A stretch of 54,847 nt of DNA, taken from positions 1 through 54,847 of the forward strand of contig CALGYY010000047.1 of NCBI GenBank assembly GCA_937934705.1. The letters run 5' to 3'. The position numbers and the translations under genes were made by a program. Position 1 is the first letter of the stretch. Every line of letters begins with the position of its first letter. Below are positions 29,669 through 44,375 of this stretch, one piece after another. This DNA comes from an uncultured Bacteroidota bacterium. Lineage in GTDB: Bacteria > Bacteroidota > Bacteroidia > Bacteroidales > CAIWKO01. Under the pieces are notes generated by a model, which had not been told where the DNA came from, did not search any database, and saw nothing but the letters and a program-made list of their open reading frames with translations.

Positions 29669-30289
29669 ATGAAGAATCATTTCGACGAGGTGGCCCGTCA
29701 ATGGGATCAGAACAAGGTTCACCTGGAACGCACGCGTGCCATTGCCGATGCTGTATTGCAGGAAGGATTGCTGATACCCGGATCAAGGGGTCTTGAATTC
29801 GGAGCGGGGACTGCCTTGCTGAGCATTGTCCTTAATGAGCATTTCCGCGAGATCGTGCTGGTTGACAGTTCGGCGGAGATGCTGAAGGTGACGGCAGAAA
29901 AGCTCAGCCGTGAGGAGCTGCATCATTTACACCCCCGTCTGATGGACATTGAAAAGGGGGATCCGGAAGCGGGAAGTTATGATGTGGTGTTTTCCCAGAT
30001 GGCCCTGCATCACATCCGTGACATTGGTGCCCTGCTGCCGGTTCTGCATCAAATGCTGAATCCGGGCGGGCGGCTGATCATTGCAGATCTTTATCCGGAG
30101 GACGGTAGTTTCCATGACCACCAGGATTATGTGCATCAAGGGATCGACCCTGAGGTACTCTCGCAAGGCTTACAAAATCATGGTTTTTCCGGTGTCGCCT
30201 ACAGGGAATGTTACCGCATCAGGCGTGAAAATGAATCCGGGATCAAGGAGTTTCCGGTGTTTCTGCTTTGGGCACAAAAGCAAGCTTAA
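29669..30289 (+). CDS. Class I SAM-dependent methyltransferase
   Basis: 206 aa. Motif I LEFGAGTALLS, post-I VLVDSS, motif II/III YDVVFSQMALHH...LNPGGRLIIAD. Confidence 0.8.
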   Translation: MKNHFDEVARQWDQNKVHLERTRAIADAVLQEGLLIPGSRGLEFGAGTALLSIVLNEHFREIVLVDSSAEMLKVTAEKLSREELHHLHPRLMDIEKGDPEAGSYDVVFSQMALHHIRDIGALLPVLHQMLNPGGRLIIADLYPEDGSFHDHQDYVHQGIDPEVLSQGLQNHGFSGVAYRECYRIRRENESGIKEFPVFLLWAQKQA

Positions 30290-30299
30290 AATGAGCGCA

Positions 30300-31364
30300 T
30301 CAGACGCTTTTAATATGAAGCGGTGAGGCCGGGGAGCCCATTGATTCGCCGTTTGTTCCCGTGTACTTTTGATCCGGGTCAAAGGTAATCCCGATTTTCT
30401 CCAGAATGGGCTCAACTGCTACCTGATGTAATTGCAGGCCCATGTCCCAGGGATCATATCCCAGCAGCAGACCGGCCAGTTCTTCATAGGTCAGCACCGG
30501 TATGCCGTAACCGTTTTCCCCATAGGTCTTACTTTCCATTTCTGCAATTACATATTGCCAGCGGTCGAGGAAATAGGTGCAGCCAGGACAATTGGCAATA
30601 ATCACATCCGGACGATAGGGTTCCATTGAATCAAATTTGCGCTTTGAATTGGTGATGGAATAACCCCGGTTGGATTTCAGCAGGTATTGTCGGAATCCAA
30701 AGCCACAGCAGTGCCTTCGTTCCGGATAATCTACCTGTTCGCCACCCCAGGCATCTGTCAAACCTGCCAGAACGTAAGGATACTCCGCCCCTCCTACACC
30801 TTTTTCCGGGAATATCTTGGCATAATGGCAGCCGATGTGATCCACCACCCTGATGGGTTTGCCGTCGATCTGATTCTTCAGGTAATAGCGAAATTGCTTT
30901 TCGATGTCGAGTCTGAACTTGTAAATAATATCGCTGGTGTGAACCAGGTTTTCAGGTATTTCAAAGCGTTTTCCGCAAGAGCGGTACAGGATATCCCTTG
31001 CCTTTTTTTCCGTATCCGGAAAATGCTTCCATGTTTCGAGCACCTCGGTGTAAATCCCGAATGAGGTAACACAGGAGCAGACAAAATTCCGGTACCCGGC
31101 TTCTGTCATCAGGGCAAACTGCCGGGCCACCACCGACATGGTGGTTTCCATGGGAATCAGTCCCGAATGATAGGCTATTCCGGTGCAGCTCGTTTGTTTC
31201 GGATCATCAAAAATATCTTTATGCAGAACATCTCTTAGGATTTTCATAAAGAGATCTTCAGCTGCCGGAAAGAAATTCTGGCGGATACAACTCCGTGCGA
31301 AGTAGTAATGATCATCTGCAATTTCCTTCTGGTAGCGTTCCCAGTTTTCGTTCTTATTCATCAT
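30300..31364 (-). CDS. hdrB: Heterodisulfide reductase subunit B-like protein (CCG-domain)
   Basis: The ORF is open to 31469 but overlaps hdrC. Candidate starts are 31409, 31379 and 31364. The C-terminal half has a full CCG-domain pattern (GCHY...HCCGFG...NCPGC). The N-terminal half is degenerate (SCTG, VCSC). Confidence 0.8.
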   Translation of the reverse strand: MMNKNENWERYQKEIADDHYYFARSCIRQNFFPAAEDLFMKILRDVLHKDIFDDPKQTSCTGIAYHSGLIPMETTMSVVARQFALMTEAGYRNFVCSCVTSFGIYTEVLETWKHFPDTEKKARDILYRSCGKRFEIPENLVHTSDIIYKFRLDIEKQFRYYLKNQIDGKPIRVVDHIGCHYAKIFPEKGVGGAEYPYVLAGLTDAWGGEQVDYPERRHCCGFGFRQYLLKSNRGYSITNSKRKFDSMEPYRPDVIIANCPGCTYFLDRWQYVIAEMESKTYGENGYGIPVLTYEELAGLLLGYDPWDMGLQLHQVAVEPILEKIGITFDPDQKYTGTNGESMGSPASPLHIKSV

Positions 31365-32061
31365 TTTTCCCGGCTTCATTTCCATGGTAGAGTCTGTTGA
31401 AATATTCATCTTTCCCTTCTCCGAAACGGGAACCTGTCTTACGGGCATATTCCTCCGATGCGGCTTCAATCTTTTCGAAGCGCTTCATGGCGCCGCTTTC
31501 TTCGAATATTTGCCGGAGCTCATTCATCGTAACCTCATCGATGTTCCGCAGTGCCCCTGCCCTGTCCATCTTATAGCTGGCTCCGAGTCTTTCCAATATT
31601 GCTGATCTGTGATCGAGAAACCACTGCCACACGGGTCCCTGTTCCGGATACATATCGAGGCTTATTTCATCAATATAAATACAATAGCCGTATTCAAGCA
31701 AGTGTTCGCCAATGGTCCGCTTCAAAGCAAGTTGTTTACGCCCCTGCCCGCTATCAGTGAAAAAACCTCCTTCGATGGATAAGGCGCGCAAAGCCTGTAT
31801 GATGTAGCAAGGAGTGTTACCCCTCGGGCAGCGGGTTTTGCATGACAGACATTCGCCGCACATCCATATGGTGTCAGAGCGCAGTAATTGTTCGAGAGCT
31901 GCTTCATCCTTTTGCTGCACGAGGTCAATGATCATTCTGGGGTCGTAATCACTGACTGCGGCGGCAGGACAAACGGCGGTACAGGTGCCGCAGTTGAAAC
32001 AGGCTTTAAGCCCTTCTGTGTATCGCGGATCCTGTTCCAGTTTCTGATAGAGTGTTTCCAT
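31354..32061 (-). CDS. hdrC: Heterodisulfide reductase subunit C-like 2x[4Fe-4S] protein
   Basis: 235 aa. CFNCGTCTAVCP and CGECLSCKTRCP motifs with HdrC-like spacing and a helical C-terminal extension. Confidence 0.8.
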   Translation of the reverse strand: METLYQKLEQDPRYTEGLKACFNCGTCTAVCPAAAVSDYDPRMIIDLVQQKDEAALEQLLRSDTIWMCGECLSCKTRCPRGNTPCYIIQALRALSIEGGFFTDSGQGRKQLALKRTIGEHLLEYGYCIYIDEISLDMYPEQGPVWQWFLDHRSAILERLGASYKMDRAGALRNIDEVTMNELRQIFEESGAMKRFEKIEAASEEYARKTGSRFGEGKDEYFNRLYHGNEAGKNDE

Positions 32062-32333
32062 TACTTCTGAATGCGTTTCTGTTTAATGGTGTGCCAGCTG
32101 ATGGCATCAGCAGGGCAGGTTTCGATACAGAGACCGCAGGAATTGCAGTGTTCGTAGATAAACACGAGATAATCAGGGTGGCAATTCACCTCAAGGGAAA
32201 TGCAATATTTCATACATTTTGCACATTGACTGCTCCCGGTCCTGACGATGGCCTGCTGAGGGCATGCTGCGATACAGGTTCCGCACTGGGTACAGAGCAG
32301 GGGGTTCAGTTCAGGTATCTTTTCCTGTTTCAT
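32061..32333 (-). CDS. 2x[4Fe-4S] ferredoxin
   Basis: 90 aa. CTQCGTCIAACP and CNSCGLCIETCP motifs plus extra Cys (CAKCMKYC). Confidence 0.8.
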   Translation of the reverse strand: MKQEKIPELNPLLCTQCGTCIAACPQQAIVRTGSSQCAKCMKYCISLEVNCHPDYLVFIYEHCNSCGLCIETCPADAISWHTIKQKRIQK

Positions 32334-33198
32334 GTCTGTTTTTCATTAATTGATCATACATATTCAAAAGTTTTTTTGATAAGCCGGATCCGGGCAAAAA
32401 CTCGGGTATACTTTTACCCGCGACCATGGCGTGCGTAAAACTCGCGTCGAAGGGAATCCGTCCGAGTAAAAGCCAGTTGTTCTCCAGGCATTCCGTCTCG
32501 ATCTCCCGGTCAGCCATAGTGTTCAGATCAGCTTTATTAATAATGACGGACACCCTGCTTTTTGTTGAATTGACCACTTTCATGACCCTTCTGAAATCAG
32601 CAAGCCCGGAAAGACTGGCTTCAGTGACCACAACCACCTGGTCCACTCCCGTGATGGTGCTGATCACCGGGCATCCGGTTCCCGGTGGCCCATCAAGTAT
32701 GATCAGGGGGAGTTTGTTTCTCAGGGATTCAGCTTTCGCCTTTTCGCGTACCAGGCTGACCAGTTTGCCCGAGTTTTCCTCCCCGGGTGCCAGGCGCCCG
32801 TATACGAGAGTTCCGTAGCGGAAGTCACCCGTAAAGAGGCGGCTGCGGTTTGCCGGGTCCATGGTGATGGCTTGTTCGGGGCAAAGGTGAGCGCATAAGC
32901 GGCATCCTTCACATTTCAGCGGATCGACAATGTAGTCCGGACCGGAAGTCATCACTGCCCCGAAACGGCAGTGTTGATGGCATATGCCGCATGATAAACA
33001 GCGATCAGCCATGATGCGGGCCTTATAACCCGATATATAGATTTCCTCCTCTCTGTGAAGCGGGTTAAACAGCAGGTACTGGTTCGCCGCATCCACATCA
33101 CAATCCGCCAGAACGAGCCGCCCGGCAGCAGTAGCCAATGCGGCAGCGATGCTCGATTTTCCGCTCCCTCCTTTACCGCTGATGACTGCTATTTCCAT
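32311..33198 (-). CDS. MinD/ParA-superfamily P-loop ATPase with inserted 4Fe-4S ferredoxin domain
   Basis: 295 aa. Deviant Walker A SGKGGSGKSS, Cys motifs CLSCGICHQHC and CEGCRLCAHLCP, and DGPPGTGCPV. Confidence 0.85.
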   Translation of the reverse strand: MEIAVISGKGGSGKSSIAAALATAAGRLVLADCDVDAANQYLLFNPLHREEEIYISGYKARIMADRCLSCGICHQHCRFGAVMTSGPDYIVDPLKCEGCRLCAHLCPEQAITMDPANRSRLFTGDFRYGTLVYGRLAPGEENSGKLVSLVREKAKAESLRNKLPLIILDGPPGTGCPVISTITGVDQVVVVTEASLSGLADFRRVMKVVNSTKSRVSVIINKADLNTMADREIETECLENNWLLLGRIPFDASFTHAMVAGKSIPEFLPGSGLSKKLLNMYDQLMKNRHETGKDT

Positions 33199-34049
33199 TT
33201 CTGCACGAATTGAGAGATCAGTTTTCTGAAATCATTCATGATTGCAGGGTGTGACTGAATGCTGAGACTGCCTCTGGCATAATTCGCTGCAATGCCCGCA
33301 TCATATGGAATGCGCATCAGCAGGGGAATTTTCCGCTCAGTGATGTACTTCATCATATCTTCAGTGCCGGTATCGCATCGGTTGATGATGAGCCCGTATG
33401 GTTTCCCTATTTCATTGAGGGTATCGATGCTCTGGCGGAGGTCGCTCAATCCGAAAGGAGTAGGTTCAGCGACAAGGATTACAAAATCCGCGGCGGAAAC
33501 TGTGTGAATAAAAGGGCAGGATGTTCCGGGAGGGGCGTCGAGGATATGCCATTCTGTATCCGGATCAGCAGAACTGATGGCCTGACGGATAACAGGAACA
33601 GGTGACATGGTCCCGGCATGGGTTCTTCCTTCAATGATGACTGTATTGTGATTCCAGCTGTGAACATTAACCCGGCCGGTTTCCCTGTAATCTTCCTTTA
33701 CGGCAGCGGTGTGACATGCATCGATACATGCTCCGCATGAATGGCAAAGTTCCGGTATGATATGAATCATCCCTCCCGGGGGTAAATAGAAAACTGCGTG
33801 GTACTGGCACCATTCAAAACAGCGTCCGCAGAAATCACATTCATCACTGACAATCCGTGGACAGAGCTGGTTCACCGGGATACTCTTTATTTGCGGGGCT
33901 TTAAAAAACAGCAGGCAATCCGGGGCTTCTGCGTCACAATCAGTAAGTGTAACCCGCAAGCCCTTTTCAGCAGCCAGGGCAAAAAGATGAGTTGAGACCA
34001 GGGTTTTGCCCGTTCCTCCCTTTCCGCTGGCCACTGCGAGGGTAAACAT
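33189..34049 (-). CDS. MinD/ParA-superfamily P-loop ATPase with inserted 4Fe-4S ferredoxin domain (paralog)
   Basis: 286 aa. SGKGGTGKT, CDFCGRCFEWC, CHSCGACIDAC and DAPPGTSCPF. Confidence 0.85.
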   Translation of the reverse strand: MFTLAVASGKGGTGKTLVSTHLFALAAEKGLRVTLTDCDAEAPDCLLFFKAPQIKSIPVNQLCPRIVSDECDFCGRCFEWCQYHAVFYLPPGGMIHIIPELCHSCGACIDACHTAAVKEDYRETGRVNVHSWNHNTVIIEGRTHAGTMSPVPVIRQAISSADPDTEWHILDAPPGTSCPFIHTVSAADFVILVAEPTPFGLSDLRQSIDTLNEIGKPYGLIINRCDTGTEDMMKYITERKIPLLMRIPYDAGIAANYARGSLSIQSHPAIMNDFRKLISQFVQKWK

Positions 34050-34053
34050 GAGA

Positions 34054-34491
34054 TCAGTCGTATTTGAGCCGTGTTTCCTCGTCAGCCAGAGCAGGTGCTA
34101 TCAGGCCCTGCCAGTGCCGTGTTTTCCATGTGCCGAGAGCAGCATGTGTAAGGTGGTATTTCTGCGGAATCGGGTGGGTTCCGAAAATCACTTCCAATCC
34201 GAATTTCTCACGAATGTAGCGTTCAAAATAATCGAGCCTTGGACAAGGCGGATAGCCCACCAGACAGCCCGTGGCAAAGTGAATTTTGCTGATCCCGTTT
34301 TTCTTCATCTCTTCCGGAGCATATTCAACATTTCCGCCGGGACACCCCCCGCAGTTTGCGTAAGCAGCAATTTCCACTTCCTCTCCTTTGTATATGGAGA
34401 AAGCGCCTTCCCTTTCCCTGAGTGCCCTGAAGCATTTGCCCCCTGCACAATCGCGGTAACGGTCACAAATGATCACGCCGATTTTAATCAT
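34054..34491 (-). CDS. CGGC-domain protein
   Basis: The track ORF starts at 34512. The Met at 34491 (MIKIGVIICDRYRDCAGGKC) fits the family N-terminus. The eponymous ANCGGCPG motif is present. Confidence 0.8.
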   Translation of the reverse strand: MIKIGVIICDRYRDCAGGKCFRALREREGAFSIYKGEEVEIAAYANCGGCPGGNVEYAPEEMKKNGISKIHFATGCLVGYPPCPRLDYFERYIREKFGLEVIFGTHPIPQKYHLTHAALGTWKTRHWQGLIAPALADEETRLKYD

Positions 34492-34501
34492 AAATGATAT
34501 T

Positions 34502-35350
34502 TTATTGAGCACGATATACTAAAGCAGAACCGACCGGAGCGTGAACACGTTCTGCGATGACATCACACTTCACCATCAGCAGGAAGAAGATTCTCGGATC
34601 CTTTTTATCGATCAGTCCCTCAAGATTGCCTTGTCCCTTCGAAATGATCAGGTCAGCAGTTTCGAAATGATGAAGAAAACCCTTTCCGGATTTGCTGAGG
34701 ATCACAGAGGGGGCGTCATATCCTGTAGATATGATATCTGCCACCACATGCATTTCCGTTTCTTTGGCATCTTCCAGAGTTACATCATTAATTACAGGAC
34801 CTCCCCTTACCGCAAATGTCACGTTGGGGTGCATCATCATTTCGATCAGCAGCTTGTCGAAAACGATTTCTCCGGCATTGTCGCCAAGGTACAATATCTT
34901 TTCCGCTGAGGCGATTTCCTTACGGAGGGCATCTGATTCATCCCTGAAGAAATCATTTTGCATGACCTCTGTAATGGTTTTCTCTGTGTCGAATTCAGAT
35001 AAGGCTCCGTAATCCATGATATTCCCGGCCACTGCCAGTCGCAACGCCATACTGAAAGGGTCCGCGGAATTTAACACGCGGGGTTTCCATCTTTCATAGA
35101 GCTCCATGGCCACCATATTACTTTGCATCTTTTCAAGGGTGAAAGGATCCTGAATCCCTTGCAGGCGGCAGAGATAATGATACAGCTCCCTTTGCACCTC
35201 CGGACTGCCGGGGCAGGGTTCCCTTTTCATGATTTCTGAAAAGAAGGCAGAAAACTCCTGTATCTGATTTTCTGTAAGAGTAAAGCGGTTTTTCAGGCGC
35301 CCGTAACTTCGGCTGAAGCAATCAGCACAGCGCGGATCCAGTCTGCTCAT
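34502..35350 (-). CDS. DUF89 / ARMT1-like damage-control phosphatase family protein
   Basis: The ORF is open to 35437 but overlaps nifX-like by 86 bp. The Met at 35350 lies 1 nt after the upstream stop. Motifs LGDNAGEIVFDKLL and IISKGQGNLEGL. Confidence 0.8.
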   Translation of the reverse strand: MSRLDPRCADCFSRSYGRLKNRFTLTENQIQEFSAFFSEIMKREPCPGSPEVQRELYHYLCRLQGIQDPFTLEKMQSNMVAMELYERWKPRVLNSADPFSMALRLAVAGNIMDYGALSEFDTEKTITEVMQNDFFRDESDALRKEIASAEKILYLGDNAGEIVFDKLLIEMMMHPNVTFAVRGGPVINDVTLEDAKETEMHVVADIISTGYDAPSVILSKSGKGFLHHFETADLIISKGQGNLEGLIDKKDPRIFFLLMVKCDVIAERVHAPVGSALVYRAQ

Positions 35351-35351
35351 A

Positions 35352-35690
35352 TCAGTGGTCGCAATAATTGGATTCAAGCTTGAGTGAGCCGTCAAGAAAG
35401 GCCTGAACAAGCTCCTTTGCACTTTGTATCGGGGCACCTACAAAAACATTGATCTTTTGTTCCTTAAAAAGGTCGATGGCTCTTTGGCCCATACCTCCGG
35501 CAATCACGTCCGTAACACCATACTGGGCAATCCAGCGCGGATAGAGTCCGGGCTGATGCTCCGGTGGTGTTACATGAATTTCGGCACCCGCAACTCCGTT
35601 ATCTACCGTGATGATCGCGAAATTCTCACAATGTCCGAAATGGGGACAAAGCACCCTGTTTTCCAATGGAACAGCAATTTTCTTTTGCAT
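35352..35690 (-). CDS. NifX/NifB-C-terminal type (dinitrogenase Fe-Mo cofactor family) cluster-carrier protein
   Basis: 112 aa. MQKKIAVPLENRVLCPHFGHCENFAIITVD and GVTDVIAGGMGQRAIDLF are typical of this small-domain family. Confidence 0.85.
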   Translation of the reverse strand: MQKKIAVPLENRVLCPHFGHCENFAIITVDNGVAGAEIHVTPPEHQPGLYPRWIAQYGVTDVIAGGMGQRAIDLFKEQKINVFVGAPIQSAKELVQAFLDGSLKLESNYCDH

Positions 35691-35753
35691 GCATTAAATG
35701 TTTGAATGTTAAAAAAAGGGAGAGGGAGGGGGCAAAAGCCCCCGCCCGGGGAC

Positions 35754-35993
35754 TTATTCAGTCCCTCTGAAACGGTTCCTGCGGCCGGTTCCGCGACCAC
35801 GGGCACAAACCCTAAGACCGAAGCCATGTCCCCGTCCACCACCGTCCTTTCTACGCCCTCTTCCCTGAAAAACACCAGAAACTTCAGCATCCTGCTGATT
35901 TGAAGGGCTGCAAATAATTCCTGTGCAGCGTCCCATTTTGCGACCGGTCATGGGACCCTCCCCGGCCGGACCGCGTTGATCGAAATTTGGCAT
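35754..35993 (-). CDS. DUF5320 family protein (Arg/Gly-rich)
   Basis: 79 aa. MPNFDQRGPAGEGPMTGRKMGRC N-terminus followed by an RG-rich tail, the pattern I associate with DUF5320. Confidence 0.7.
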   Translation of the reverse strand: MPNFDQRGPAGEGPMTGRKMGRCTGIICSPSNQQDAEVSGVFQGRGRRKDGGGRGHGFGLRVCARGRGTGRRNRFRGTE

Positions 35994-36007
35994 ATGCTCT
36001 CCTTTCT

Positions 36008-36328
36008 TCAGTTGTGATCGAGTAAATCAATCACCTCCTGAATAGTTTTATCTTCTGTTTTCATGACGATCATTTGAATTTTCAGGCTATCGAGCAGAGA
36101 TTTTATCTTGATCCCGAACTCGCCTGAAACGATCTTCTTCACCCCTTTTGATGCCAGGAAGCGCACGGAAGAGGGACCTGCGCCTTCTTCTGCTTCCTTG
36201 TTGGGATTGGGCATGATTTCAACCGATTTTAGCTCCGTATCATAAATCACAAAATAGGAGCATCTGCCAAAACGCCCGTCAATTGTGCTGTTTAGATCCT
36301 TTCCTGTACTCGTGATGGCTGTTTTCAT
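36008..36328 (-). CDS. NifX/NifB-C-terminal type cluster-carrier protein (paralog)
   Basis: 106 aa. IDGRFGRCSYFVIYD and GVKKIVSGEFGIKIKSLL motifs. Confidence 0.85.
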   Translation of the reverse strand: MKTAITSTGKDLNSTIDGRFGRCSYFVIYDTELKSVEIMPNPNKEAEEGAGPSSVRFLASKGVKKIVSGEFGIKIKSLLDSLKIQMIVMKTEDKTIQEVIDLLDHN

Positions 36329-36340
36329 TGGATACTTGGT

Positions 36341-36823
36341 TTATGGATTCATCTGCCCCCGCCTTAATCTTCTTCTCCTGCAGGATTTCTCCTGAATTTC
36401 TTCCGGCACTTCTGTATAGTTGGAAACGCCTGAATGACCACAGAGAGGGCACTCCTCTACAGAACTGGCCTTATCCGGGTGATTGAAAAAACAACCACAG
36501 CCCTCGCAGGTATACCACTCACTGTCGAAGAAGATCTTCCCGCCCTCGATAATGATCTGTTTCCCGTTCACAAAAGCGTCTGCAATTTTCTGCAGAGCGC
36601 GGGCATAAATTCTGGTGAGCGTTGGTCTTGACACTTCCATGGCCAGGGCTGCCTCAACCTGACTGAAACCCTTGTGATCGCAAAGCCTCAATGCCTCATA
36701 TTCCTCAAAATGCAGAAACACCTTCTCCCGGGTCAAAGCCCTGTCAGAAGCTCCGTAAGGTTTAAATCCTGCAATAAGGGGCGGATCACTGATCTTTCTG
36801 AGTCTTTTTGGTCTGGGACACAT
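36341..36823 (-). CDS. DUF134 (UPF0251) predicted DNA-binding protein with C-terminal zinc ribbon
   Basis: 160 aa. MCPRPKRLRKISDPPLIAGFKPYG, HTH-like EYEALRLCDHKGFSQVEAALAMEVSRPTLTRIYARA, then CEGCGC...CPLCGH. Confidence 0.85.
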   Translation of the reverse strand: MCPRPKRLRKISDPPLIAGFKPYGASDRALTREKVFLHFEEYEALRLCDHKGFSQVEAALAMEVSRPTLTRIYARALQKIADAFVNGKQIIIEGGKIFFDSEWYTCEGCGCFFNHPDKASSVEECPLCGHSGVSNYTEVPEEIQEKSCRRRRLRRGQMNP

Positions 36824-36827
36824 AATA

Positions 36828-36867
36828 TGAACATTTGTTCACCACAAAGGTAATGAACATTTGTTCA
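36828..36867 (-). promoter_or_regulatory. Twin operator: two identical 14-bp perfect palindromes TGAACAtTTGTTCA (TGAACA-TT-TGTTCA) flanking a TAccTTTG -7-type box
   Basis: tgaacatttgttca occurs at 36828-36841 and 36854-36867. On the - strand TACCTTTG (36845-36852) sits between them. The proximal palindrome ends 4 nt from the DUF134 ATG. Confidence 0.6.
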
Positions 36868-36905
36868 AATGCAAGAAAAAATATCATTTTTTTTCGCCGG
36901 GCCTT

Positions 36906-38090
36906 TTATGATTTAGCCGGTTTCTGCTTCATCAGCTTTTCTGCCTTGCTCACCACCAGCGAAAGGTAAATGGCCAGCGGCCGGTAGGCCAGGTGTGACC
37001 ATTTGGAGAACGGTACTTCAATGATCAGCATGGGGAAAAGGATCATCAGATGAACAACGTACATAATATACGTGGGATAAGGCATGCCATTCACCCGGAA
37101 GAAGTGAACCAGGATGCCTGTAACTGCGGTCAGCATCAGCAGGAGGAGGAAGGTCCAGTCGGTAAAGTGGGTATGCTTGGCCTTTTCTGTTTTCTTTTTG
37201 ATGCGGAGTACACTGAAATAGATAATGCCACCGATTAGTCCTACCGTGGTGTAATAACCCAATAAACGCTGGGGATGCCACCAGTCATGAATCTCATCTG
37301 TCTGAAACCAGCCGAGGAAACCCACGATCATGGTGAAAAGCATAACATAACTTGACATGAGCAGAAAGTGTACAAGCCAGTAGGTGTTCTTTCCCTGCTT
37401 CAGTTTCTCCCGCCAGGAAATTTTTTCAGTATGGCATTTGGCAAATCTTCTTTGGGTTGCAAAATGTCCGATCAGGGCCGGCAACTGTGTAAAGTAGAGT
37501 TTGAAGGGTATCCTTAAGCCTTCTTTCACCCTGCTTCGTACAATTTTCAGATACATGCGAACCACATTTGAAAGCAGGAGGCTTGAGAGTACAGCGGCGA
37601 CTCCCCAGTCGACGAGTTCAATGATTTGCCACGGGGCGAAAGTGTTCAGTTTTACGCCCCCTTCAGGGGTGAGTTCTGTAGTCATTTCCCCGTGAAAGAA
37701 GATGAAACCCAGCAGTACCAGCAGGGCGATGAACAGGAGTGCGACAATTTCAAAAGTTTTGGATGTGTACAGCATGCGGGAGATCCCGGTCCAGTCGTAT
37801 TTGGCGATCAGATAACGGCGTGTCGCCATCATAAGATTCCCGGGGTTGGCTTCGCGCGGACAGGTGGTTGAACAGTCGCCACAATAATAGCACAGCCATG
37901 GGTCGAGGGAGCGCTGTATCTGCCCGTCTAGTCCCAGCACGGTATAACGCAGCATCTTCCTCGGGAAGGAATTTTCGCCGTCAGACAGGGAACAGATGGC
38001 CGTGCATGTACCGCAGTTGTAGCAGGCATCGAATTCGTTGGCGCCGAATTTCTTGATCTCTTTTCCGAACTCTGGATTCACTCTTGCCAT
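36906..38090 (-). CDS. QmoC-like membrane protein: HdrC-type 2x[4Fe-4S] domain fused to an HdrE/NarI-type multi-TM (cytochrome b-like) domain
   Basis: 394 aa. CYNCGTCTAICS and CYYCGDCSTTCP are followed by about six hydrophobic helices with conserved His residues. Confidence 0.75.
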   Translation of the reverse strand: MARVNPEFGKEIKKFGANEFDACYNCGTCTAICSLSDGENSFPRKMLRYTVLGLDGQIQRSLDPWLCYYCGDCSTTCPREANPGNLMMATRRYLIAKYDWTGISRMLYTSKTFEIVALLFIALLVLLGFIFFHGEMTTELTPEGGVKLNTFAPWQIIELVDWGVAAVLSSLLLSNVVRMYLKIVRSRVKEGLRIPFKLYFTQLPALIGHFATQRRFAKCHTEKISWREKLKQGKNTYWLVHFLLMSSYVMLFTMIVGFLGWFQTDEIHDWWHPQRLLGYYTTVGLIGGIIYFSVLRIKKKTEKAKHTHFTDWTFLLLLMLTAVTGILVHFFRVNGMPYPTYIMYVVHLMILFPMLIIEVPFSKWSHLAYRPLAIYLSLVVSKAEKLMKQKPAKS

Positions 38091-38095
38091 GGGGA

Positions 38096-40078
38096 TCAGT
38101 TTTTCATTTTATAATTGAAGTAGGTGTCGCTCTCATCCATGCCGTCGGGCACAACGATCCCGTATTTGTTCATGGTCATCAGATGCCAGGTCACCAGGTC
38201 ACTGCTTTTGTTGATCTGCTTCGAAAGATCCGGTATATTCATTGGCCCTGAAGCAAGAGCTTCTTCAATCTCTTTCCAGAGCTGGGGATATTCCTTCATG
38301 GTTACGGCCGGGGCTTCTTCATTCTCTGTTGTGCTTTCCTGTTGTTTCTCACGCATCTCGACCTTCTCCATAAAACCATCAATCATGCTTTCGATCTCGA
38401 GATTGGTAAACTGTGCCAGTTCAATCGCGTCAGGCGGGCAAACCGGTGCACATATCCCGCATCCGGCACAGGTAGCATTATTCACAACCGCCACCTGTTT
38501 TCCCTGAAATTCGATCTGACGGATGGCATCGTAATCGCAGACCTCCGCGCACTTTCCGCACCAGGTGCAGGCTTCGCTGTTAACCCTGGCCACCACCGGA
38601 TCCAGCGAAATGGTCCCGCCTCCTAACAAGGCATTCATCTTGGCCGCGGCTGAAAGTGAGGATTCAACCGATTCTGTAATATTCCTCGGTCCCTGGCAAC
38701 TGCCGCCGATATACACGCCTTTGATCACCGTTTCCACCGGTTTCAGTTTGGGGTGGATTTCGTTGAAAAAACGATCGCTGCCAATGGGAATCTTAAAAAC
38801 GTCTGCAATGCTTCGACTGTCTTCCCTGGCGACGGCACCGGTAACCAGCACGACAAGATCCAGTGGAATTTCAATTTCTTCTTTCGATGTGAGATAGTCT
38901 TTTACTTTAACCAGGACCTGATCGCCAGCAGCCTCCACAAGCGGCGGTTCTTTTTCATCCCAGCGAATATAGATATCGCCCTGTTTTGAAGACTTCTCAT
39001 AAAGGATTTCCTGCTTCCCGTATGTCCGTATGTCGCGGAATAAATGCCATGCGGTCACATCCCCGTATTTTTCCTTTATCTTCAGTGAGGTATGTATAGC
39101 CGCACTGCAGCAAAAGCGCGAGCAGTATTTATTTTCCCCTTTTTTCTGGCGGTTTCCGACACAATAAATGAAACCCACCTGTCTCACCTTTTTGCCGTCC
39201 ACCACCAGCTCACCCTGCTCTTTCACCATACGGTCGAAATCCGGCAGTGTGACGATGCGCTTTGAACTTCCGTAAGCATATTCATTCTCCTTTGGCTGAT
39301 AGCTGTCCATCCCTGTTGCCACAAGAACGGAGCCCACATTCAGGCTCAGCTTTTCATCATTATCGCCTGTTCCGATGCTGACGCCAACGTGAAAATTTCC
39401 CAGGCTTCCGCTGACTTTCTCAACTGTCGCCCTTGTAAAAACAGTGATGCCGCTGTGCCTGCGGATCTCTTCCTGCAGGCGACCCGTCAGTTCGCTGCCG
39501 CTCTGCCCGCTCATGAATAAGCTGCCTGCCTGTGCCACACGGCCACCGGTCTGCGCTTCCTTTTCAATCAGGTACACCTGGTTCCCCATGCGTGCCAGAT
39601 CAATCGCGGCACGCATTCCGGCTACTCCGGCACCGATGACCAAAGCCGCCTTCACGACTGGAATCTCAATGTTCTCCAGAGACTCAGAATGTGATACCCG
39701 CTTGATTCCTGCACGGATGAGCCCCACAGCCTTTATGCTGGCTTCCTTTTTATTATCGGAATGTGGCCAGGAACATTGTTCCCTGATATTGACCTGTACA
39801 TAATTGGAGGGGTTCAGTTTTGCCCTTTCAGCCACTCCACGGAAAGTATGCAGGTGAAGCTTGGGTGAGCAGGAAGCCACAACGATCGCGTCCAGTTTGT
39901 GCTCTTCAATATCACTGACCATCTGCTTCTGGTTGGAATCGGCACAGGCGAACATGACATCCTTTGAGATCACCACACCCGTCTCTTCTGCAAGCATTTT
40001 ACCGAGTTCTTCAACATCAACATAATCGGAGATGTTGCCCCCGCAATGACAGATATATACTCCTATTCTCTGTTTCAT
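38096..40078 (-). CDS. hdrA: HdrA-type FAD/FeS flavoprotein (QmoB-position) with C-terminal 2x[4Fe-4S] and an extra helical tail
   Basis: The ORF is open to 40243 but overlaps the upstream gene. The Met at 40078 gives MKQRIGVYICHCGGNISDYVD. FAD fold ALVIGAGVAGMRAAIDLA, HdrA signature YCVGNRQKKGENKYCSRFCC, CTWCGKCAEVC and CAGCGICAPVCP. Confidence 0.85.
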   Translation of the reverse strand: MKQRIGVYICHCGGNISDYVDVEELGKMLAEETGVVISKDVMFACADSNQKQMVSDIEEHKLDAIVVASCSPKLHLHTFRGVAERAKLNPSNYVQVNIREQCSWPHSDNKKEASIKAVGLIRAGIKRVSHSESLENIEIPVVKAALVIGAGVAGMRAAIDLARMGNQVYLIEKEAQTGGRVAQAGSLFMSGQSGSELTGRLQEEIRRHSGITVFTRATVEKVSGSLGNFHVGVSIGTGDNDEKLSLNVGSVLVATGMDSYQPKENEYAYGSSKRIVTLPDFDRMVKEQGELVVDGKKVRQVGFIYCVGNRQKKGENKYCSRFCCSAAIHTSLKIKEKYGDVTAWHLFRDIRTYGKQEILYEKSSKQGDIYIRWDEKEPPLVEAAGDQVLVKVKDYLTSKEEIEIPLDLVVLVTGAVAREDSRSIADVFKIPIGSDRFFNEIHPKLKPVETVIKGVYIGGSCQGPRNITESVESSLSAAAKMNALLGGGTISLDPVVARVNSEACTWCGKCAEVCDYDAIRQIEFQGKQVAVVNNATCAGCGICAPVCPPDAIELAQFTNLEIESMIDGFMEKVEMREKQQESTTENEEAPAVTMKEYPQLWKEIEEALASGPMNIPDLSKQINKSSDLVTWHLMTMNKYGIVVPDGMDESDTYFNYKMKN

Positions 40079-40103
40079 TATATGTGGTTTTTGAAAGGTA
40101 CTT

Positions 40104-42899
40104 TCAGGATCCGCAGTGACAGCCGCAGCTTTCCTGGTCAACACATGAATTATTGAGGTAGGCTGCCACTTCTGATGCCGCGCAACCTGCCGATAAGATG
40201 GAATCCGGAATATCTTTCGGGCCGGCAGCACTGCCGGCCACAAAAACGCCTTCGATACTGGTCAGGGCCGGATGGATCAGTTCGTCGGCTTGTCTGACAA
40301 AGTTAAATTCATCCAGTTCGAGCGTCTCATTGCTGAAGAACTTTGCCGTATCCTTATTGGGAACTACACCTACCGAAAGCACCACCAGATCATGTTTTGC
40401 CTCTTTCAGCACTCCGGTAGTGATATCCTCATATCGCAGTATCACATCCCCGTTGGGATTCGAGTCATCTTTAGCACGAATCTTAGCAACTTTTCCTTTA
40501 ATAAAATTAACCCCCATGGATTTTGCTTCCTGGAAGAATTCCTCGTAGCCTTTGCCAAATGCCCGGATGTCGATATAGTAGATGGTAATATCTGCCATGG
40601 GTAAAGCTCCCATCAGCAGTTGAGCCTGTTTGATGGAATACATGCAGCAGATCTGGGAGCAGATCGGGTTGTTGGCACAGTCATCCCCGCAACCCATATG
40701 GTTTTCGATACTGCGGTCGCGGGAACCCGCACAAAGTACATAGGCAATATTGTCAGGGACCTTGCCGTCGCCGGGGCGGAGAACGCTGTTGTAAGGGCGT
40801 GTGGGTGCGATCAGGCGATCCATCTGCAAGGAGTCGATCACGTTGCCGAGGCGGGCGTACCCCAGTTCGGGTTTGCCTTCCGGCTTAAAGAGTTTATATC
40901 CCGAAGCCACAATTACGCTTTTGACCTCTGCATCCAGAATTTCCGGTTTCTGCGAGAAATCGATCGCATAGGCCGGGCAGGCGGTCACGCATTGATGGCA
41001 CTCCCGGCAATTGGAACAGTCGAGGCAGCGGTTTGCACTTTGCAGAACTTCGGCCTCGGTGAAAGTCAGTTCCACATCCCTGAAATCGCGGACCCTTTCT
41101 TCTGCCGGCCTGAATCCGTGGTGCAGGGCGGGAAGGATATTGACCTTCGGTCTGTTCAGTACCTGCTGTTTATCCACAGCCGGCAGCTTTTCCCCGAATG
41201 CTCCCATCGGAAAATCTTCTTTCATCAGGAAGCTGTGCATATAAAATGCTGCTTTCTTTCCGCTTCCAATGGCTTCAATGATGGTGCTCGCGCCATTCTT
41301 CGAATCACCACCGGCAAAAACCCAGGGAACTTTTGTCTGGTGGGTTTCAGGATCGGCCTGAATGGTGCCGTCTTTTCCGACACCAATGGGGGTTTTAACA
41401 GACGATGTTGTCGGACGCAAGCCAATGGCTTCAATGACGAAATCAACCTCTTCCCAGTATTCTGAACCTTCCTCAGGAACCGGAAGCCTGCGGCCTTTTT
41501 CATCGGCCTTATCGAGTTTCATGCGGATCAGCTGAACCTTCTTCAGCTTGCCATTTTCGCCACTGAAGCGGACCGGGTTGCGCAACTGCATCAACTCAAC
41601 GCCTTCCTCAAGGGCCTCTTCGATCTCAATATCCCAGGCCGGCATCTCTGAACGGCTCCGGCGGTAAACAACACTCACTTTTGAGGCACCGAGTCTCAGG
41701 GCTGTACGGGCGGAATCCATAGCCGTATTTCCGCCTCCGATCACCATCACACGCTTCCCTTTCAGATCAGCCGGAGTGCCGATATTGGCCTCTCTCAGAA
41801 AATCCAGGCAGGAGACCACACCCCTCAAATCTGCACCTTCGACGCGTAATTGGCTCGTTTCATGGGTGCCGACCGCCACAAATACGGCATCGTACTTCCC
41901 TTCTTCCTTCAGGGCTTCCAGGTCATCCACCCGGGTGTTCAGCTGTATCTGCACCCCAAGGGCAGTGATATTCTGAATATCGCGGTCAACAACGCTCTTC
42001 GGAAGGCGGTATTCCGGAAGCGTCAGTTTCAGCATTCCCCCGGCCTGTGATGCGGCCTCATAAATTTTCACGGAGTGACCCTTCTGCGCCAGAAAATACG
42101 CGGCGGTTAATCCTGCCGGACCAGAGCCGATAACGGCGACTTTCTTTCCTGTGAAAGGCGGCATCTCTGCTTTGGGTGCTTCAGGGTATTGCTTATAATA
42201 TTCCTCTGCGAAGAATCTTTTAATCCTGCGGATATCCACGTGCTGATCCTGTGTATCCCGTGTACAGGCTTTCTGACAGGGAGCATAACAGGCCCGGCCC
42301 AGGCTTCCTGGAAGGGGTGCGTCTTCCATGTGAAGCTTCATGGCATCCTCATACTGGCGGTTTCTCACCAATGTGATATATCCGTATGGCTTCACGCCTC
42401 CCGGACATTCATTGATACAGGGTGCAGAAACATCCTGCCGGTCGATGGAAGCGATACGGGGATTGGCCAGGCTGAAGGGAATATAGGCTACTTTACGTCC
42501 GGCCAGGTGAGCGTTGTAATCATCGCTGCGCACCTCAGGGCATACCACTTCACATTCCCCGCATCCCGTACAGTTTTCCTGTATTACATAGCGGGGATTG
42601 CGGATGATACTGGCATTGAACACCCCGTTCTGCTTCACGATCCCGTGAATATCGCTGTTGAGCGAAAGCGTAATATTCGGGTGACGGGCTGTTTCCGACA
42701 TTTTAGGAGTAGTGATACAGGCGGCACAATCGAGTGTCGGAAAAACCTTGCTCAGTTGTATCATCTTTCCCCCGATGGACAGACCTTTCTCCACCAGCAG
42801 CACCTGATAATTCATGTTGGCGAGACTTAGTGCGGCTTCCTGTCCGGCAATCCCGCCGCCGATCACCATCACATCATACTTATTCCGGTTTGTTGACAT
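40104..42899 (-). CDS. HdrA-type flavoprotein with an embedded GltD/NfnB-type NAD(P)H oxidoreductase module (HdrL-like)
   Basis: 931 aa. N-terminal YDVMVIGGGIAGQEAALSLA and CTGCGECEVVCP. Insert with GRACYAPCQKAC, KKVAVIGSGPAGLTAAYFLAQKGHSV, MVIGGGNTAMDSART and VFAGGD. The chain then resumes with HdrA features CLDCSNCRECHQCVTACP and LCAGSRD...CSQICC. Confidence 0.85.
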   Translation of the reverse strand: MSTNRNKYDVMVIGGGIAGQEAALSLANMNYQVLLVEKGLSIGGKMIQLSKVFPTLDCAACITTPKMSETARHPNITLSLNSDIHGIVKQNGVFNASIIRNPRYVIQENCTGCGECEVVCPEVRSDDYNAHLAGRKVAYIPFSLANPRIASIDRQDVSAPCINECPGGVKPYGYITLVRNRQYEDAMKLHMEDAPLPGSLGRACYAPCQKACTRDTQDQHVDIRRIKRFFAEEYYKQYPEAPKAEMPPFTGKKVAVIGSGPAGLTAAYFLAQKGHSVKIYEAASQAGGMLKLTLPEYRLPKSVVDRDIQNITALGVQIQLNTRVDDLEALKEEGKYDAVFVAVGTHETSQLRVEGADLRGVVSCLDFLREANIGTPADLKGKRVMVIGGGNTAMDSARTALRLGASKVSVVYRRSRSEMPAWDIEIEEALEEGVELMQLRNPVRFSGENGKLKKVQLIRMKLDKADEKGRRLPVPEEGSEYWEEVDFVIEAIGLRPTTSSVKTPIGVGKDGTIQADPETHQTKVPWVFAGGDSKNGASTIIEAIGSGKKAAFYMHSFLMKEDFPMGAFGEKLPAVDKQQVLNRPKVNILPALHHGFRPAEERVRDFRDVELTFTEAEVLQSANRCLDCSNCRECHQCVTACPAYAIDFSQKPEILDAEVKSVIVASGYKLFKPEGKPELGYARLGNVIDSLQMDRLIAPTRPYNSVLRPGDGKVPDNIAYVLCAGSRDRSIENHMGCGDDCANNPICSQICCMYSIKQAQLLMGALPMADITIYYIDIRAFGKGYEEFFQEAKSMGVNFIKGKVAKIRAKDDSNPNGDVILRYEDITTGVLKEAKHDLVVLSVGVVPNKDTAKFFSNETLELDEFNFVRQADELIHPALTSIEGVFVAGSAAGPKDIPDSILSAGCAASEVAAYLNNSCVDQESCGCHCGS

Positions 42900-42918
42900 A
42901 TGAATTTCTTTTTATTGA

Positions 42919-43380
42919 CTAGGACGCCTTATTATTCAGCTCAGCCTGTATGCTTCCGATCTCAGATAAGATACGGCTGAAATTGTCCATGTGACTGGCA
43001 AAGGGTTCCGCGCATACGGAACAAATGGCTGCCATGCGGATACGTTTGGGATTGATCCCCTGCTCTTTCATCATTGATTGCGCGTGGTTGATGAGGTCGT
43101 TGGTGCGGTCGGGACAACTGGCGCTGTAAGAACATTCATGTCCGTCGGCTGCGATGAAAACCCCGTCAAACCCCTGCCTGTAGGCATGCATGATCCATCG
43201 CGGTTTGATCCCCGAAGAGCATGGCATACTGATCACATAAACCGAGGGAGAATAATGAATTTTTCGCAGGCCGGCCTGGTCAATGCCCGGATCTGAGATC
43301 TTGTCAGTGGAGAAGACCAGGATTTTTGGTTGAAAACTGTTGGTGGTGGACATATTCGCTTTATGATTTGGACAATACAA
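42919..43380 (-). CDS. MvhD/FlpD-like (methyl-viologen-reducing hydrogenase delta subunit family) protein
   Basis: 153 aa; the start may be the Met at 43353. KILVFSTDKIS...VISMPCSSGIKPRWIMHAYRQGFDGVFIAADGHECSY aligns by eye with the MvhD fold but has an altered Cys pattern. Confidence 0.7.
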   Translation of the reverse strand: MYCPNHKANMSTTNSFQPKILVFSTDKISDPGIDQAGLRKIHYSPSVYVISMPCSSGIKPRWIMHAYRQGFDGVFIAADGHECSYSASCPDRTNDLINHAQSMMKEQGINPKRIRMAAICSVCAEPFASHMDNFSRILSEIGSIQAELNNKAS

Positions 43381-43441
43381 TCCTGAGACCCCGGCCTTTG
43401 AATGCGGGGTTTATTTTTGTACTATTCTGTTTACGAATTAC

Positions 43442-43699
43442 TTATGCTTTTTTCAGAAAAAGTCTGGAATAGCTGTCTTCCTCCACGATGCCAAGGAACT
43501 GGTGTTCCATTTTTTCGCACCATTTCGGGATGTCGTGTTTGGTTCCTTCGTCAGACGAAAGGATCTCCATGATCTCGCCGGATTCAATATCTCCGATGGC
43601 TTTTTTGGCTGCAAGCAGTGGTCCGGGGCATGCTGTTCCGCGGGCGTCAACAAGTTTGTTGGAGGTGAGGTTTCTGAGTTCTTCGGGTGTCATAATCAT
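43442..43699 (-). CDS. tusA: TusA/SirA-family sulfurtransferase
   Basis: 85 aa. DARGTACPGPLLAAKKAI active-site Cys motif and a two-layer alpha/beta-sized protein. Confidence 0.85.
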   Translation of the reverse strand: MIMTPEELRNLTSNKLVDARGTACPGPLLAAKKAIGDIESGEIMEILSSDEGTKHDIPKWCEKMEHQFLGIVEEDSYSRLFLKKA

Positions 43700-43728
43700 T
43701 ATTTTTATGTGATTTTACTTTTTCGTGA

Positions 43729-44298
43729 TCAGATAAAGAGCTGTACTTTGCTTTCGCTGGCATCGGCCAGGAAAGTGGCCACACCGCAGATGTTCATATG
43801 AGGATAGTCGATCATTTCTTCTTTTTTGAAGCCCATGAGGTTCATCGACATTTCGCAGATGTTGATTTCGACGCCCAGTTCGCCGGCAGTGGTGAACATT
43901 TCAGGGAGTGAGGCCACCTTATGTTTCTTCATGATGCCTTTGATCATGGATGTTCCCATTCCGCCCATATTCATTTTGCTCAGCTTAACCTTACGACTTC
44001 CTTTGGGAAGCATCATCCCGAACATCTTTTCCATGAAGGTTTTTCCGCTCACCTTTTTCTTCGGGTCACGCAGGGCTGCAATTGCCCAGAAAGTGAAGAA
44101 GAGTTTCACCTTCATATCATAAGCGGCAGCGCCTGTGGAAATAATCATGGCAGCCAGGATCTTGTCGAGATCGCCGGAAAAAACGACCATCGATAACTGG
44201 TCTTTGGTTCCCTTTTCCATTTTTCCGATCTTCTGCTGCAGTTCCTGTATCTGTTTTTCAAGTTCAGCACTCATAGGTTTGATTTTAAGTTTAAACAA
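43729..44298 (-). CDS. DsrE/DsrF/DrsH-like family protein
   Basis: 189 aa; the start may be the Met at 44274. MVVFSGDLDKILAAMIISTGAAAYDMKVKLFFTFW...LSKMNMGGMGTSMIKGIM...ICEMSMNLMGFKKEE matches the DrsE_2-type family usually paired with TusA. Confidence 0.8.
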   Translation of the reverse strand: MFKLKIKPMSAELEKQIQELQQKIGKMEKGTKDQLSMVVFSGDLDKILAAMIISTGAAAYDMKVKLFFTFWAIAALRDPKKKVSGKTFMEKMFGMMLPKGSRKVKLSKMNMGGMGTSMIKGIMKKHKVASLPEMFTTAGELGVEINICEMSMNLMGFKKEEMIDYPHMNICGVATFLADASESKVQLFI

Positions 44299-44355: not shown

Positions 44356-44375
44356 GGTGTGATTTATATCACACC
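44356..44375. promoter_or_regulatory. Perfect 20-bp palindrome containing a consensus CRP-type site TGTGA-N6-TCACA
   Basis: GGTGTGATttatATCACACC has perfect 8-bp arms. Core TGTGA at 44358-44362 and TCACA at 44369-44373. It lies in the 192-bp divergent region between the dsrE-like operon and the Crp/Fnr gene. Confidence 0.65.

Follow-up and report, generated by a model that had tools for sequence, protein, structure and literature searches.

Twin palindromes at a predicted DUF134-controlled σA promoter of an orp-like operon from an uncultured Bacteroidota bacterium

The 54,847-nt contig CALGYY010000047.1 of an uncultured Bacteroidota bacterium (assembly GCA_937934705.1), referred to in its entirety as the window, carries an operon that resembles the orp ("orange-protein") genes of Desulfovibrio and has as its first gene one for a protein of the DUF134/UPF0251 family. 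A gap of 82 nt (positions 36,824-36,905) separates this gene from another operon upstream; in this gap the sequence TGAACATTTGTTCA is present twice, with a putative -7 promoter box, TACCTTTG, precisely between the two copies. From the sequence, its conservation in related loci and the company it keeps, the gap is probably a σA promoter which the DUF134 protein represses, via two operators, in front of its own gene.

Genes and sequence elements at the locus

Following the DUF134 gene, the operon encodes a NifX-like protein, a DUF5320 protein, a second NifX-like protein, ARMT1/DUF89, CGGC and two MinD-type ATPases with ferredoxin domains, and ends with Fer4, HdrC-like and HdrB-like genes; the genes at 36008-36328 and 35352-35690 match Nitro_FeMo-Co, those at 32311-34049 CbiA/ParA and Fer4. 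MinD-type ATPases with two ferredoxin motifs and a single-domain NifX-like protein are thus encoded in one operon, the combination that marks an orp cluster. By gene coordinates, the 82-nt gap is the largest within a 17-gene block, the next being 63 and 61 nt; a preliminary description of the region had already given it as the only gap there of more than 63 bp.

The two palindromes were found by reading of the sequence and by a repeat search. In each 14-bp core, two inverted arms of 6 bp match perfectly, and the TT between them is not itself palindromic. The preliminary description, which called the two copies identical and perfect, was right as to their identity and positions, while perfection is confined to the arms. 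The cores belong to a longer repeat, ATGAACATTTGTTCA, at 36827-36841 and 36853-36867, with a start-to-start spacing of 26 bp; extended to 16-mers, the proximal copy (that is, the one closer to the gene) spans 36827-36842 and the distal one 36853-36868. Apart from these two copies, no exact match to TGAACANNTGTTCA is found in the window. On the coding (-) strand the gap reads ...A8-TGATATTTTTT-CTTG-CATT-TGAACAAATGTTCA-T-TACCTTTG-TGG-TGAACAAATGTTCA-TATT-ATG; the location of TACCTTTG (36852-36845) between the copies, their spacing, and the 4 nt between the end of the proximal copy and the ATG at 36823 all agree with what had been described before, and the start codon is supported by an MxPRP start that is conserved in 24 aligned DUF134 homologues. 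A third 6-N2-6 palindrome, CATTTGTTCAAATG (36858-36871), overlaps the distal copy; it is not kept in other loci and is probably due to chance. Upstream of the -33 element lies an AT-rich inverted repeat, GCAAGAAAAAAT/ATTTTTTTTCGC (region 36871-36897); a canonical terminator was found neither there nor elsewhere in the 82-nt gap.

In Bacteroidota the -7 box of σA promoters, TAnnTTTG, sits at -12 to -5 (PMC9723704), which places the predicted transcription start near 36840 and would leave a 5'-nontranslated region of about 17 nt lacking a Shine-Dalgarno sequence, with the ATG at +18 (Table 1). The putative -33 element, CTTG, matches the consensus TTTG in 3 of 4 positions, and the column at equal distance in the aligned loci (see below) reads tTTg; the A8 tract further upstream is possibly an UP-like promoter element. 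The distal palindrome fills the spacer between the -33 and -7 elements and the proximal one covers the predicted +1 and the short leader; both would therefore overlap the region contacted by RNA polymerase, which, as far as position goes, is the classic layout of a repressor that had been proposed for this site. In the metatranscriptome (three runs), seven short contigs of low depth fall on 35300-38300, and 36815-36915 is covered by none of them.

Table 1. Coordinates of the features in and around the 82-nt gap (window positions)
Feature	Position	Strand or sequence	Remark
Proximal operator (O-prox), predicted	36828..36841	TGAACAAATGTTCA on - strand	predicted -1 to +13
Distal operator (O-dist), predicted	36854..36867	TGAACAAATGTTCA on - strand	predicted -27 to -14; abuts -7 box
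-7 box, TACCTTTG	36845..36852	-	Bacteroidota σA consensus TAnnTTTG, occupying -12 to -5
-33 element, CTTG	36872..36875	-	predicted -35 to -32; 19 nt upstream of -7 box
Transcription start, predicted	36839..36841 (near 36840)	-	from position of -7 box
A-tract	36887..36894	A8 on - strand	about -54 to -47; A-rich columns kept in 81-locus alignment
DUF134/UPF0251 gene, 160 aa	36341..36823	-	first gene of operon; presumed repressor
Rest of orp-like operon	30300..36328	-	Pfam matches
Upstream operon (DsrE2, TusA, MvhD/FlpD, two HdrA-like, QmoC-like)	36906..44298	-	ends 82 nt before DUF134 start

Conservation of the sites and their association with DUF134

With a profile of DUF134 homologues, 80 loci were fetched from species-representative genomes (81 including the window), mostly from metagenome-assembled genomes (MAGs) of Bacteroidales and Rikenellaceae; the remaining ones are a few other Bacteroidota, one Ignavibacteriaceae MAG and three cultured Bacteroides/Phocaeicola strains. 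Their DUF134 proteins are 50-65% identical to that of the window, and the layout TTTG(-33), ATGAnC-N4-GTTCAT, TAnnTTTG(-7), tGAAC-N4-GnTCA, ATG is seen in 80/80 of them; the comparison of orthologous upstream regions, named in the preliminary description as one that could refute it, has thus come out in its favour. The aligned consensus is tTTg - N6 - aTtaTGAaCatatGTTCAT-TATcTTTG-TAn-tGAAC-nAtt-GaTcAtaa - ATG, with the distal site and the TAnnTTTG box each present in 81/81 loci and the proximal tGAAC-N4-GnTCA site at the same place in about 68/81. The three cultured strains, Bacteroides luti DSM 26991 (L075), Phocaeicola paurosaccharolyticus JCM 15092 (L073) and Bacteroides sp. KFT8 (L070), carry the distal site alone. 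Most constant are the half-sites which flank the -7 box (GTTCA in 77/81, [T/C]GAAC in 61/81); the 4-nt operator spacer is unconstrained, and the outer half-sites read GAAC, GATC or GAGC. A perfect proximal site occurs in 5/81 loci only, and the two perfect, identical copies of the window are unusually clean. The outer half-sites co-vary in mirror fashion, distal TGATC occurring with proximal GATCA in 17/17 cases and TGAGC with GCTCA in 9/12, while the inner half-sites GTTCA/TGAAC stay constant; the 40-bp unit as a whole thus forms one larger inverted repeat with the -7 box at its centre, for which shared ancestry, the symmetry of a tetramer or template-switch correction are possible causes.

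DUF134 lies directly downstream of the operator in 81/81 loci, and no other DNA-binding protein accompanies the site throughout; in every one of the 80 loci it heads the operon. The genes behind it follow a common order in nearly all of these, that is, DUF134, NifX-like, (DUF5320), NifX-like, (ARMT1), (HdrC/HdrB-like), (CGGC), two MinD-ferredoxin ATPases, the exceptions being a few short or truncated contigs. Hdr/Qmo-like genes (DsrE-TusA-MvhD-HdrA-HdrA-QmoC) precede DUF134 in only about 8/80 loci, and it is for this reason that the earlier notion of an internal promoter inside a supercluster is true of this genome only; in general, the element would be the main promoter of an independent and widely conserved operon. 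The sequence of the sites, their position, their conservation and their association with DUF134 are matters of observation.

The window protein matches PF02001 with 77.7 bits (cut-off 27; E=1.1e-21; residues 4-97) and NCBIfam PRK04217, a "hypothetical protein", only below the cut-off of that model. It contains a σ70-region-4-like helix-turn-helix at residues ~34-88 as well as five invariant Cys (C106, C109, C111, C125, C128), possible ligands of zinc or of an Fe-S cluster. In the AlphaFold model the per-residue confidence (pLDDT) is >90 for residues ~34-88, with a mean of 67.8 for the model; the helix-turn-helix core fits best to the N-terminal DNA-binding domain of SorC/DeoR and to region 4 of ECF σ factors (7bhy, 3vep, 2h27, 5fgm), at a root-mean-square deviation of 0.5-1.0 Å over 40-50 residues, a weak similarity (Foldseek E about 0.04-0.2) confined to ~45 residues. 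By sequence, no relative of DUF134 is found in the PDB, where the helix-turn-helix finds its best match in the DeoR DNA-binding domain (E=0.045); several DUF134 homologues match Sigma70_r4 models of Pfam. No published DNA target, function or name for DUF134/UPF0251/PF02001/COG1342 was found in the literature searched, Pfam or NCBIfam, in keeping with the previous remark that the target of the family is undefined, and a search of the literature on DUF5320 returned nothing functional.

Operator subtype and DUF134 subfamily go hand in hand. The short proteins of subfamily B (..RIYN-x-ALK) go together with a G/C-containing spacer (e.g., TGAAC-GTAG-GTTCA) in 10/10 directly upstream cases, the other subfamilies with an A/T-only spacer in 46/51 (Fisher p=3e-8, a statistic that ignores phylogeny), and operons which start with a membrane open reading frame (ORF) plus a subfamily-B DUF134 all have a G/C-containing spacer. 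The small membrane proteins in question (~80-95 aa; motif C-x2-C ... C-G-P-[FY]-C; no Pfam match) were noted in eight loci (L084, L094, L102, L104, L113, L155, L170, L196); in all of these except L170, their gene is the operon head and a subfamily-B DUF134 comes next.

Variants of the palindrome occur in front of DUF134 genes of other phyla. A generic probe for DUF134 gave access to eight loci outside Bacteroidota, whose upstream regions were read. Three of them, which are mutually related, are on archaeal-like contigs (with genes for PriS, deoxyhypusine synthase and ADP-forming acetyl-CoA synthetase; GC 0.32-0.35), each with a bicistron of a DUF5320-like gene and a gene for a DUF134 of 96-100 aa without the Cys part; the bicistron is preceded by the TATA-like TTAAATA, by TGAATATATATTCA and, 23-24 bp further on, by a second TGAAT-N4-ATTCA. 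Locus L206 has two sites of this palindrome form, 38 bp apart. In a Chloroflexota MAG (L210), where the operon is DUF134-DUF364-Fer4/DUF5320-NifX-MinD, ATGGGCGTATGCCCAT (2469-2484) stands just after a σ70-like TTGACA/TAACAT promoter, and in L208 an imperfect TGAGCATATGACCA, upstream of 2501, lies inside the spacer of TTGACA-N17-TAATA (-35/-10); at both, the geometry is as in Bacteroidota and the letters are different. The archaeal-like and Chloroflexota operons encode no candidate DNA-binding protein besides DUF134. Of the 11 palindromes of the form TGnnY-N4-RnnCA in 43 kb, 9 fall no more than 120 nt ahead of a DUF134 operon head (p=2e-13), and the half-site goes with the recognition helix: TGAAC with SRPTLTRIY, TGAAT (archaeal-like, TGAAT-N4-ATTCA) with SQPTFFRLL, and TGGGC (Chloroflexota, TGGGC-N4-GCCCA) with SRQTFQRVL, a comparison which ignores phylogeny.

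A position weight matrix (PWM) of the sites gives 23.2 bits to the proximal and 22.8 bits to the distal site; otherwise, it finds in the window just weak matches within coding sequence, at 24211 and 35449, which are treated as chance. In 937 kb (loci and window) the PWM detects 145 sites at expected DUF134 promoters and 16 elsewhere; strong ones among the extra sites belong to a DUF5320 promoter (L063) and to a split-off DUF5320-NifX-MinD half-operon (L033, L056), another (L064) to an additional DUF134 paralogue that stands opposite a peroxiredoxin gene, and two (L015, L007) to ArsR-FeoA-FeoB operons. An unbiased scan of metagenome contigs for the site together with the -7 box, using the pattern TGAACNNNNGTTCATTANNTTTG, yielded at least 121 sites on at least 120 contigs, and at least 104 of them precede DUF134 genes or families of the window's operon (NifX-like, DUF5320, ARMT1, methyltransferase). 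Among the matches listed, the gene downstream of the 121 sites is DUF134 in 67 cases, DUF5320 in 11, a small Cys-rich membrane ORF and then DUF134 in 8, NifX-like in 8, a small Gly-rich zinc-ribbon protein in 4, an S-adenosylmethionine (SAM) methyltransferase like that of the window (29669-30289) in 2, and ARMT1, radical-SAM/BATS, a peroxiredoxin and a Cys/Met pyridoxal-phosphate enzyme in 1 each; 17 are unclassified, several being truncated DUF134 genes or seemingly intragenic. Judged by these matches, the predicted operator marks further promoters in other genomes and would define a small regulon beyond the adjacent gene.

Several genes behind or near such sites deserve mention. The free-standing Gly-rich zinc-ribbon proteins (65-100 aa, ..YCVCAKCG..CPxCG..; L092, L105, L137, L194) match the C-terminal extension of 194-aa DUF134 proteins, and this zinc ribbon looks like a domain occurring fused or separate. 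High-scoring sites, TTGAACAATTGTTCAT and TTGAACAGTTGTTCAT (L015:3291, L007:2980), are located just downstream of a -7 box before ArsR-FeoA-FeoB operons, which hints at ferrous iron uptake as part of the regulon of some genomes. The SAM methyltransferase gene of the window (29669-30289, +) is convergent with the operon end and has no DUF134-type site upstream; its homologues carry such an operator in L167 and L175 and lie beside DUF134 genes in L030, L135, L155, L097, L203 and L204. Further upstream, between the Hdr/Qmo-like operon and a divergent gene of the Crp/Fnr family (44491-45171), a CRP-type palindrome of the form TGTGA-N6-TCACA, GGTGTGATATAAATCACACC (44356-44375), probably controls the DsrE2-TusA-Hdr/Qmo-like operon. 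The mechanically called ORFs 30300-31469 (HdrB-like), 34502-35437 (ARMT1) and 38096-40243 (second HdrA-like) reach 86-140 nt into their upstream neighbours; translation probably starts further inside each ORF, and the HdrA-like protein, for example, would begin at MKQRIGVYICHCG.

Mode of action and alternative readings

The most plausible scenario is that the σA promoter formed by CTTG at -33 and TACCTTTG at -7 drives the operon headed by the DUF134 helix-turn-helix gene, and that DUF134 dimers bind both dyad operators (consensus ATGAAC-N4-GTTCAT, 26 bp centre to centre), thereby blocking RNA polymerase. DUF134 would then repress its own synthesis together with that of the NifX-like, DUF5320, ARMT1, CGGC, MinD-ferredoxin ATPase and HdrCB-like genes. 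The linkage of site and gene, the co-variation of spacer and subfamily, and the variant palindromes in other phyla all argue for autoregulation by the adjacent DUF134, as had been proposed. What relieves repression might, speculatively, be redox or metal/Fe-S status, by analogy to Desulfovibrio, whose OrpR senses redox, and in view of the invariant Cys residues of the protein. Whether such a role extends to DUF134/UPF0251 proteins of Bacteria and Archaea at large is a more tentative matter; they may be autorepressors acting at ATGnnC-N4-GnnCAT operators, sensing redox or metal-cluster status through their Cys-rich ribbon or through a partner (DUF5320) and controlling orp-like genes in place of σ54/OrpR, although for this wide form of the proposal the chances appear to be somewhat less than even.

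Several points weigh against autorepression by DUF134 through twin operators. We infer the transcription start, the binding of DUF134 and the repression itself. The twin arrangement is not obligatory, as about 13/81 loci are without the proximal site; the structure model is confident for the helix-turn-helix core only; and the statistics for spacer type and subfamily carry no correction for phylogeny. A locus with both operator types, which would set specificity apart from phylogeny, was sought and none was found. Paralogues of subfamily C (L063, L201, L202) have no consistent site upstream, L063 and L201 counting against the proposal, and two of the eight non-Bacteroidota loci (L203, L204) lack such a palindrome. 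Finally, read-through from the upstream operon may add to expression, since the gap is without a canonical terminator.

The most serious rival to DUF134 as the binding protein is a Crp/Fnr-type regulator, such as the product of the gene at 44491-45171, with DUF134 being merely one of the regulated genes. DUF134 does have a Crp/Fnr gene nearby in a few metagenome loci (L155, L094, L202) as well as in the window, the geometry of the motif (5-N4-5, 14 bp) is compatible with this family, and the PrfA-type box, TTAACANNTGTTAA, has a 6-N2-6 geometry like that of the palindromes here. Against this stands that a homologue of the window's Crp/Fnr protein is encoded within ±6 kb in 0/80 genome loci, DUF134 in all 80, and that the window's Crp/Fnr gene has a canonical TGTGA-N6-TCACA site of its own. 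Further, the operator subtype follows the subfamily of DUF134, and the minimal archaeal-like operons, which encode a DUF5320-like protein and DUF134 only, yet retain twin palindromes. Binding by a Crp/Fnr protein thus appears unlikely. Assignment of the palindromes themselves to the Crp/Fnr sites was also considered and rejected, their sequence being different from TGTGA-N6-TCACA and TTGAT-N4-ATCAA and no linked homologue being present in the 80 loci.

About as improbable is that DUF134 does bind the sites but acts there as an activator or as a σ-like recruitment factor. Its helix-turn-helix resembles region 4 of σ70, the -35-binding domain, homologues match Sigma70_r4, and activators of the MerR type also bind within a promoter spacer. 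The position of the sites argues otherwise: in all loci a good -33/-7 promoter with a normal spacing of 19-20 nt is already present, the second site lies over the predicted +1 and leader, where an activator would not be expected to activate, and the archaeal-like sites directly follow a TATA-like box, where repressors usually bind.

Less probable still is that the repeats act as nucleic-acid structure, either as a DNA cruciform or, in RNA from read-through, as a hairpin that serves for termination, attenuation or processing. The fold of the gap RNA (ΔG -26.3 kcal/mol, z=-3.8) has one copy base-paired with the other, and the mirror-fashion co-variation of the outer half-sites across loci would suit such a pairing. 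Yet transcripts of this promoter would not contain the distal copy, given its place upstream of the -7 box, and a co-directional upstream operon from which read-through could come is present in about 8/80 loci only. Changes in the arms within sites are uncompensated, with arm mismatches in 37/81 distal and 76/81 proximal sites, and neither a U-tract terminator nor an Rfam family matches the region. That the pair is due to chance or to a recent local duplication without function is effectively refuted, for although single 6-N2-6 palindromes occur in the window at chance frequency (18 seen, 15.9 expected), two identical ones no more than 100 nt apart arose in 0/300 Markov simulations, and the layout is kept in 81/81 loci at a protein identity of only 50-65%.

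Implications and comparison with known systems

DUF134/UPF0251 proteins are widespread in anaerobic bacteria and archaea, and the genes for NifX-like proteins, MinD-ferredoxin ATPases, DUF5320, ARMT1 and CGGC together form a gene set that ranks among the most strongly conserved in anaerobes. Through the analysis this uncharacterised family, and with it the conserved gene cluster, gains a likely target along with a likely regulon and mode of action; the predicted operator, regulon and promoter layout make the function of DUF134 approachable by simple experiments. The operator also offers a handle on the conditions under which orp-like genes are switched on, and could serve in Bacteroidales as a compact repressible promoter part.

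In Desulfovibrio vulgaris Hildenborough, the orp cluster consists of two operons driven by σ54, IHF and OrpR, which binds GGGCGYRTTTTGCGCCC and senses redox potential via a [4Fe-4S] cluster; the orange-protein complex comprises the MinD-ferredoxin ATPases Orp3 and Orp4, the NifX-like Orp8 and Orp9 (MrpORP) (PMC8359166, PMC3897727, PMC6345978; for descriptions of the Orp proteins see PMC6345978). Common to both systems are P-loop ATPases of the MinD type that carry two [4Fe-4S] ferredoxin motifs and are like Orp3/Orp4, single-domain NifX-like "Di-Nase" proteins (Orp8-like), a weak similarity to MrpORP, and an anaerobe-specific cluster with a dedicated local regulator, here presumably DUF134, at palindromes of the operon promoter. 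They differ in that the Desulfovibrio genes have σ54 promoters activated by the enhancer-binding OrpR, whereas here a σA promoter of the -33/-7 type is predicted, the sites overlap the core promoter in a repressor layout, and the candidate regulator, DUF134, is encoded by the first gene. Among the cluster proteins scanned, none has a domain of σ54 activators or enhancer-binding proteins; a scan for -24/-12 promoters was not made. The first gene of orp1 in D. vulgaris, DVU2107, probably encodes a DUF134 protein as well.

The sites also bear a resemblance to two known operators, both of which were rejected as identities. The Cheo box, CGAAC-N4-GTTCG, is the operator of LexA/DinR in Gram-positive bacteria and controls the SOS response; the core GAAC-N4-GTTC is shared, but the flanks are T/A here and C/G there, and the genes behind the sites, in the window as well as behind >100 related sites, are of the orp-like metallocluster type and not those of DNA repair. 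The Rex box has the consensus TTGTGAA-N4-TTCACAA; by inspection, TGAA and TTCA are 6 nt apart in the palindromes described here and 4 nt in Rex boxes. As to the protein, DUF134 is unlike ECF σ factors and SorC in being without σ regions 2 or 3 and without the sugar-binding domain of SorC, respectively.

Similar in layout are the classical autorepressors with twin operators, exemplified by LexA at lexA and by promoter occlusion of the TrpR/Fur type. With these the DUF134 system has in common dyad sites of 14-16 bp over the core promoter and start, with the gene of the presumed regulator directly downstream; it differs from them by the σ70-region-4-like helix-turn-helix and Cys-rich ribbon of the protein and by a promoter of the Bacteroidota -33/-7 type. 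DUF134 and its predicted sites are therefore best regarded as a new transcription factor/operator pair of this classical kind, with the binding being predicted, and not as a new mechanism.

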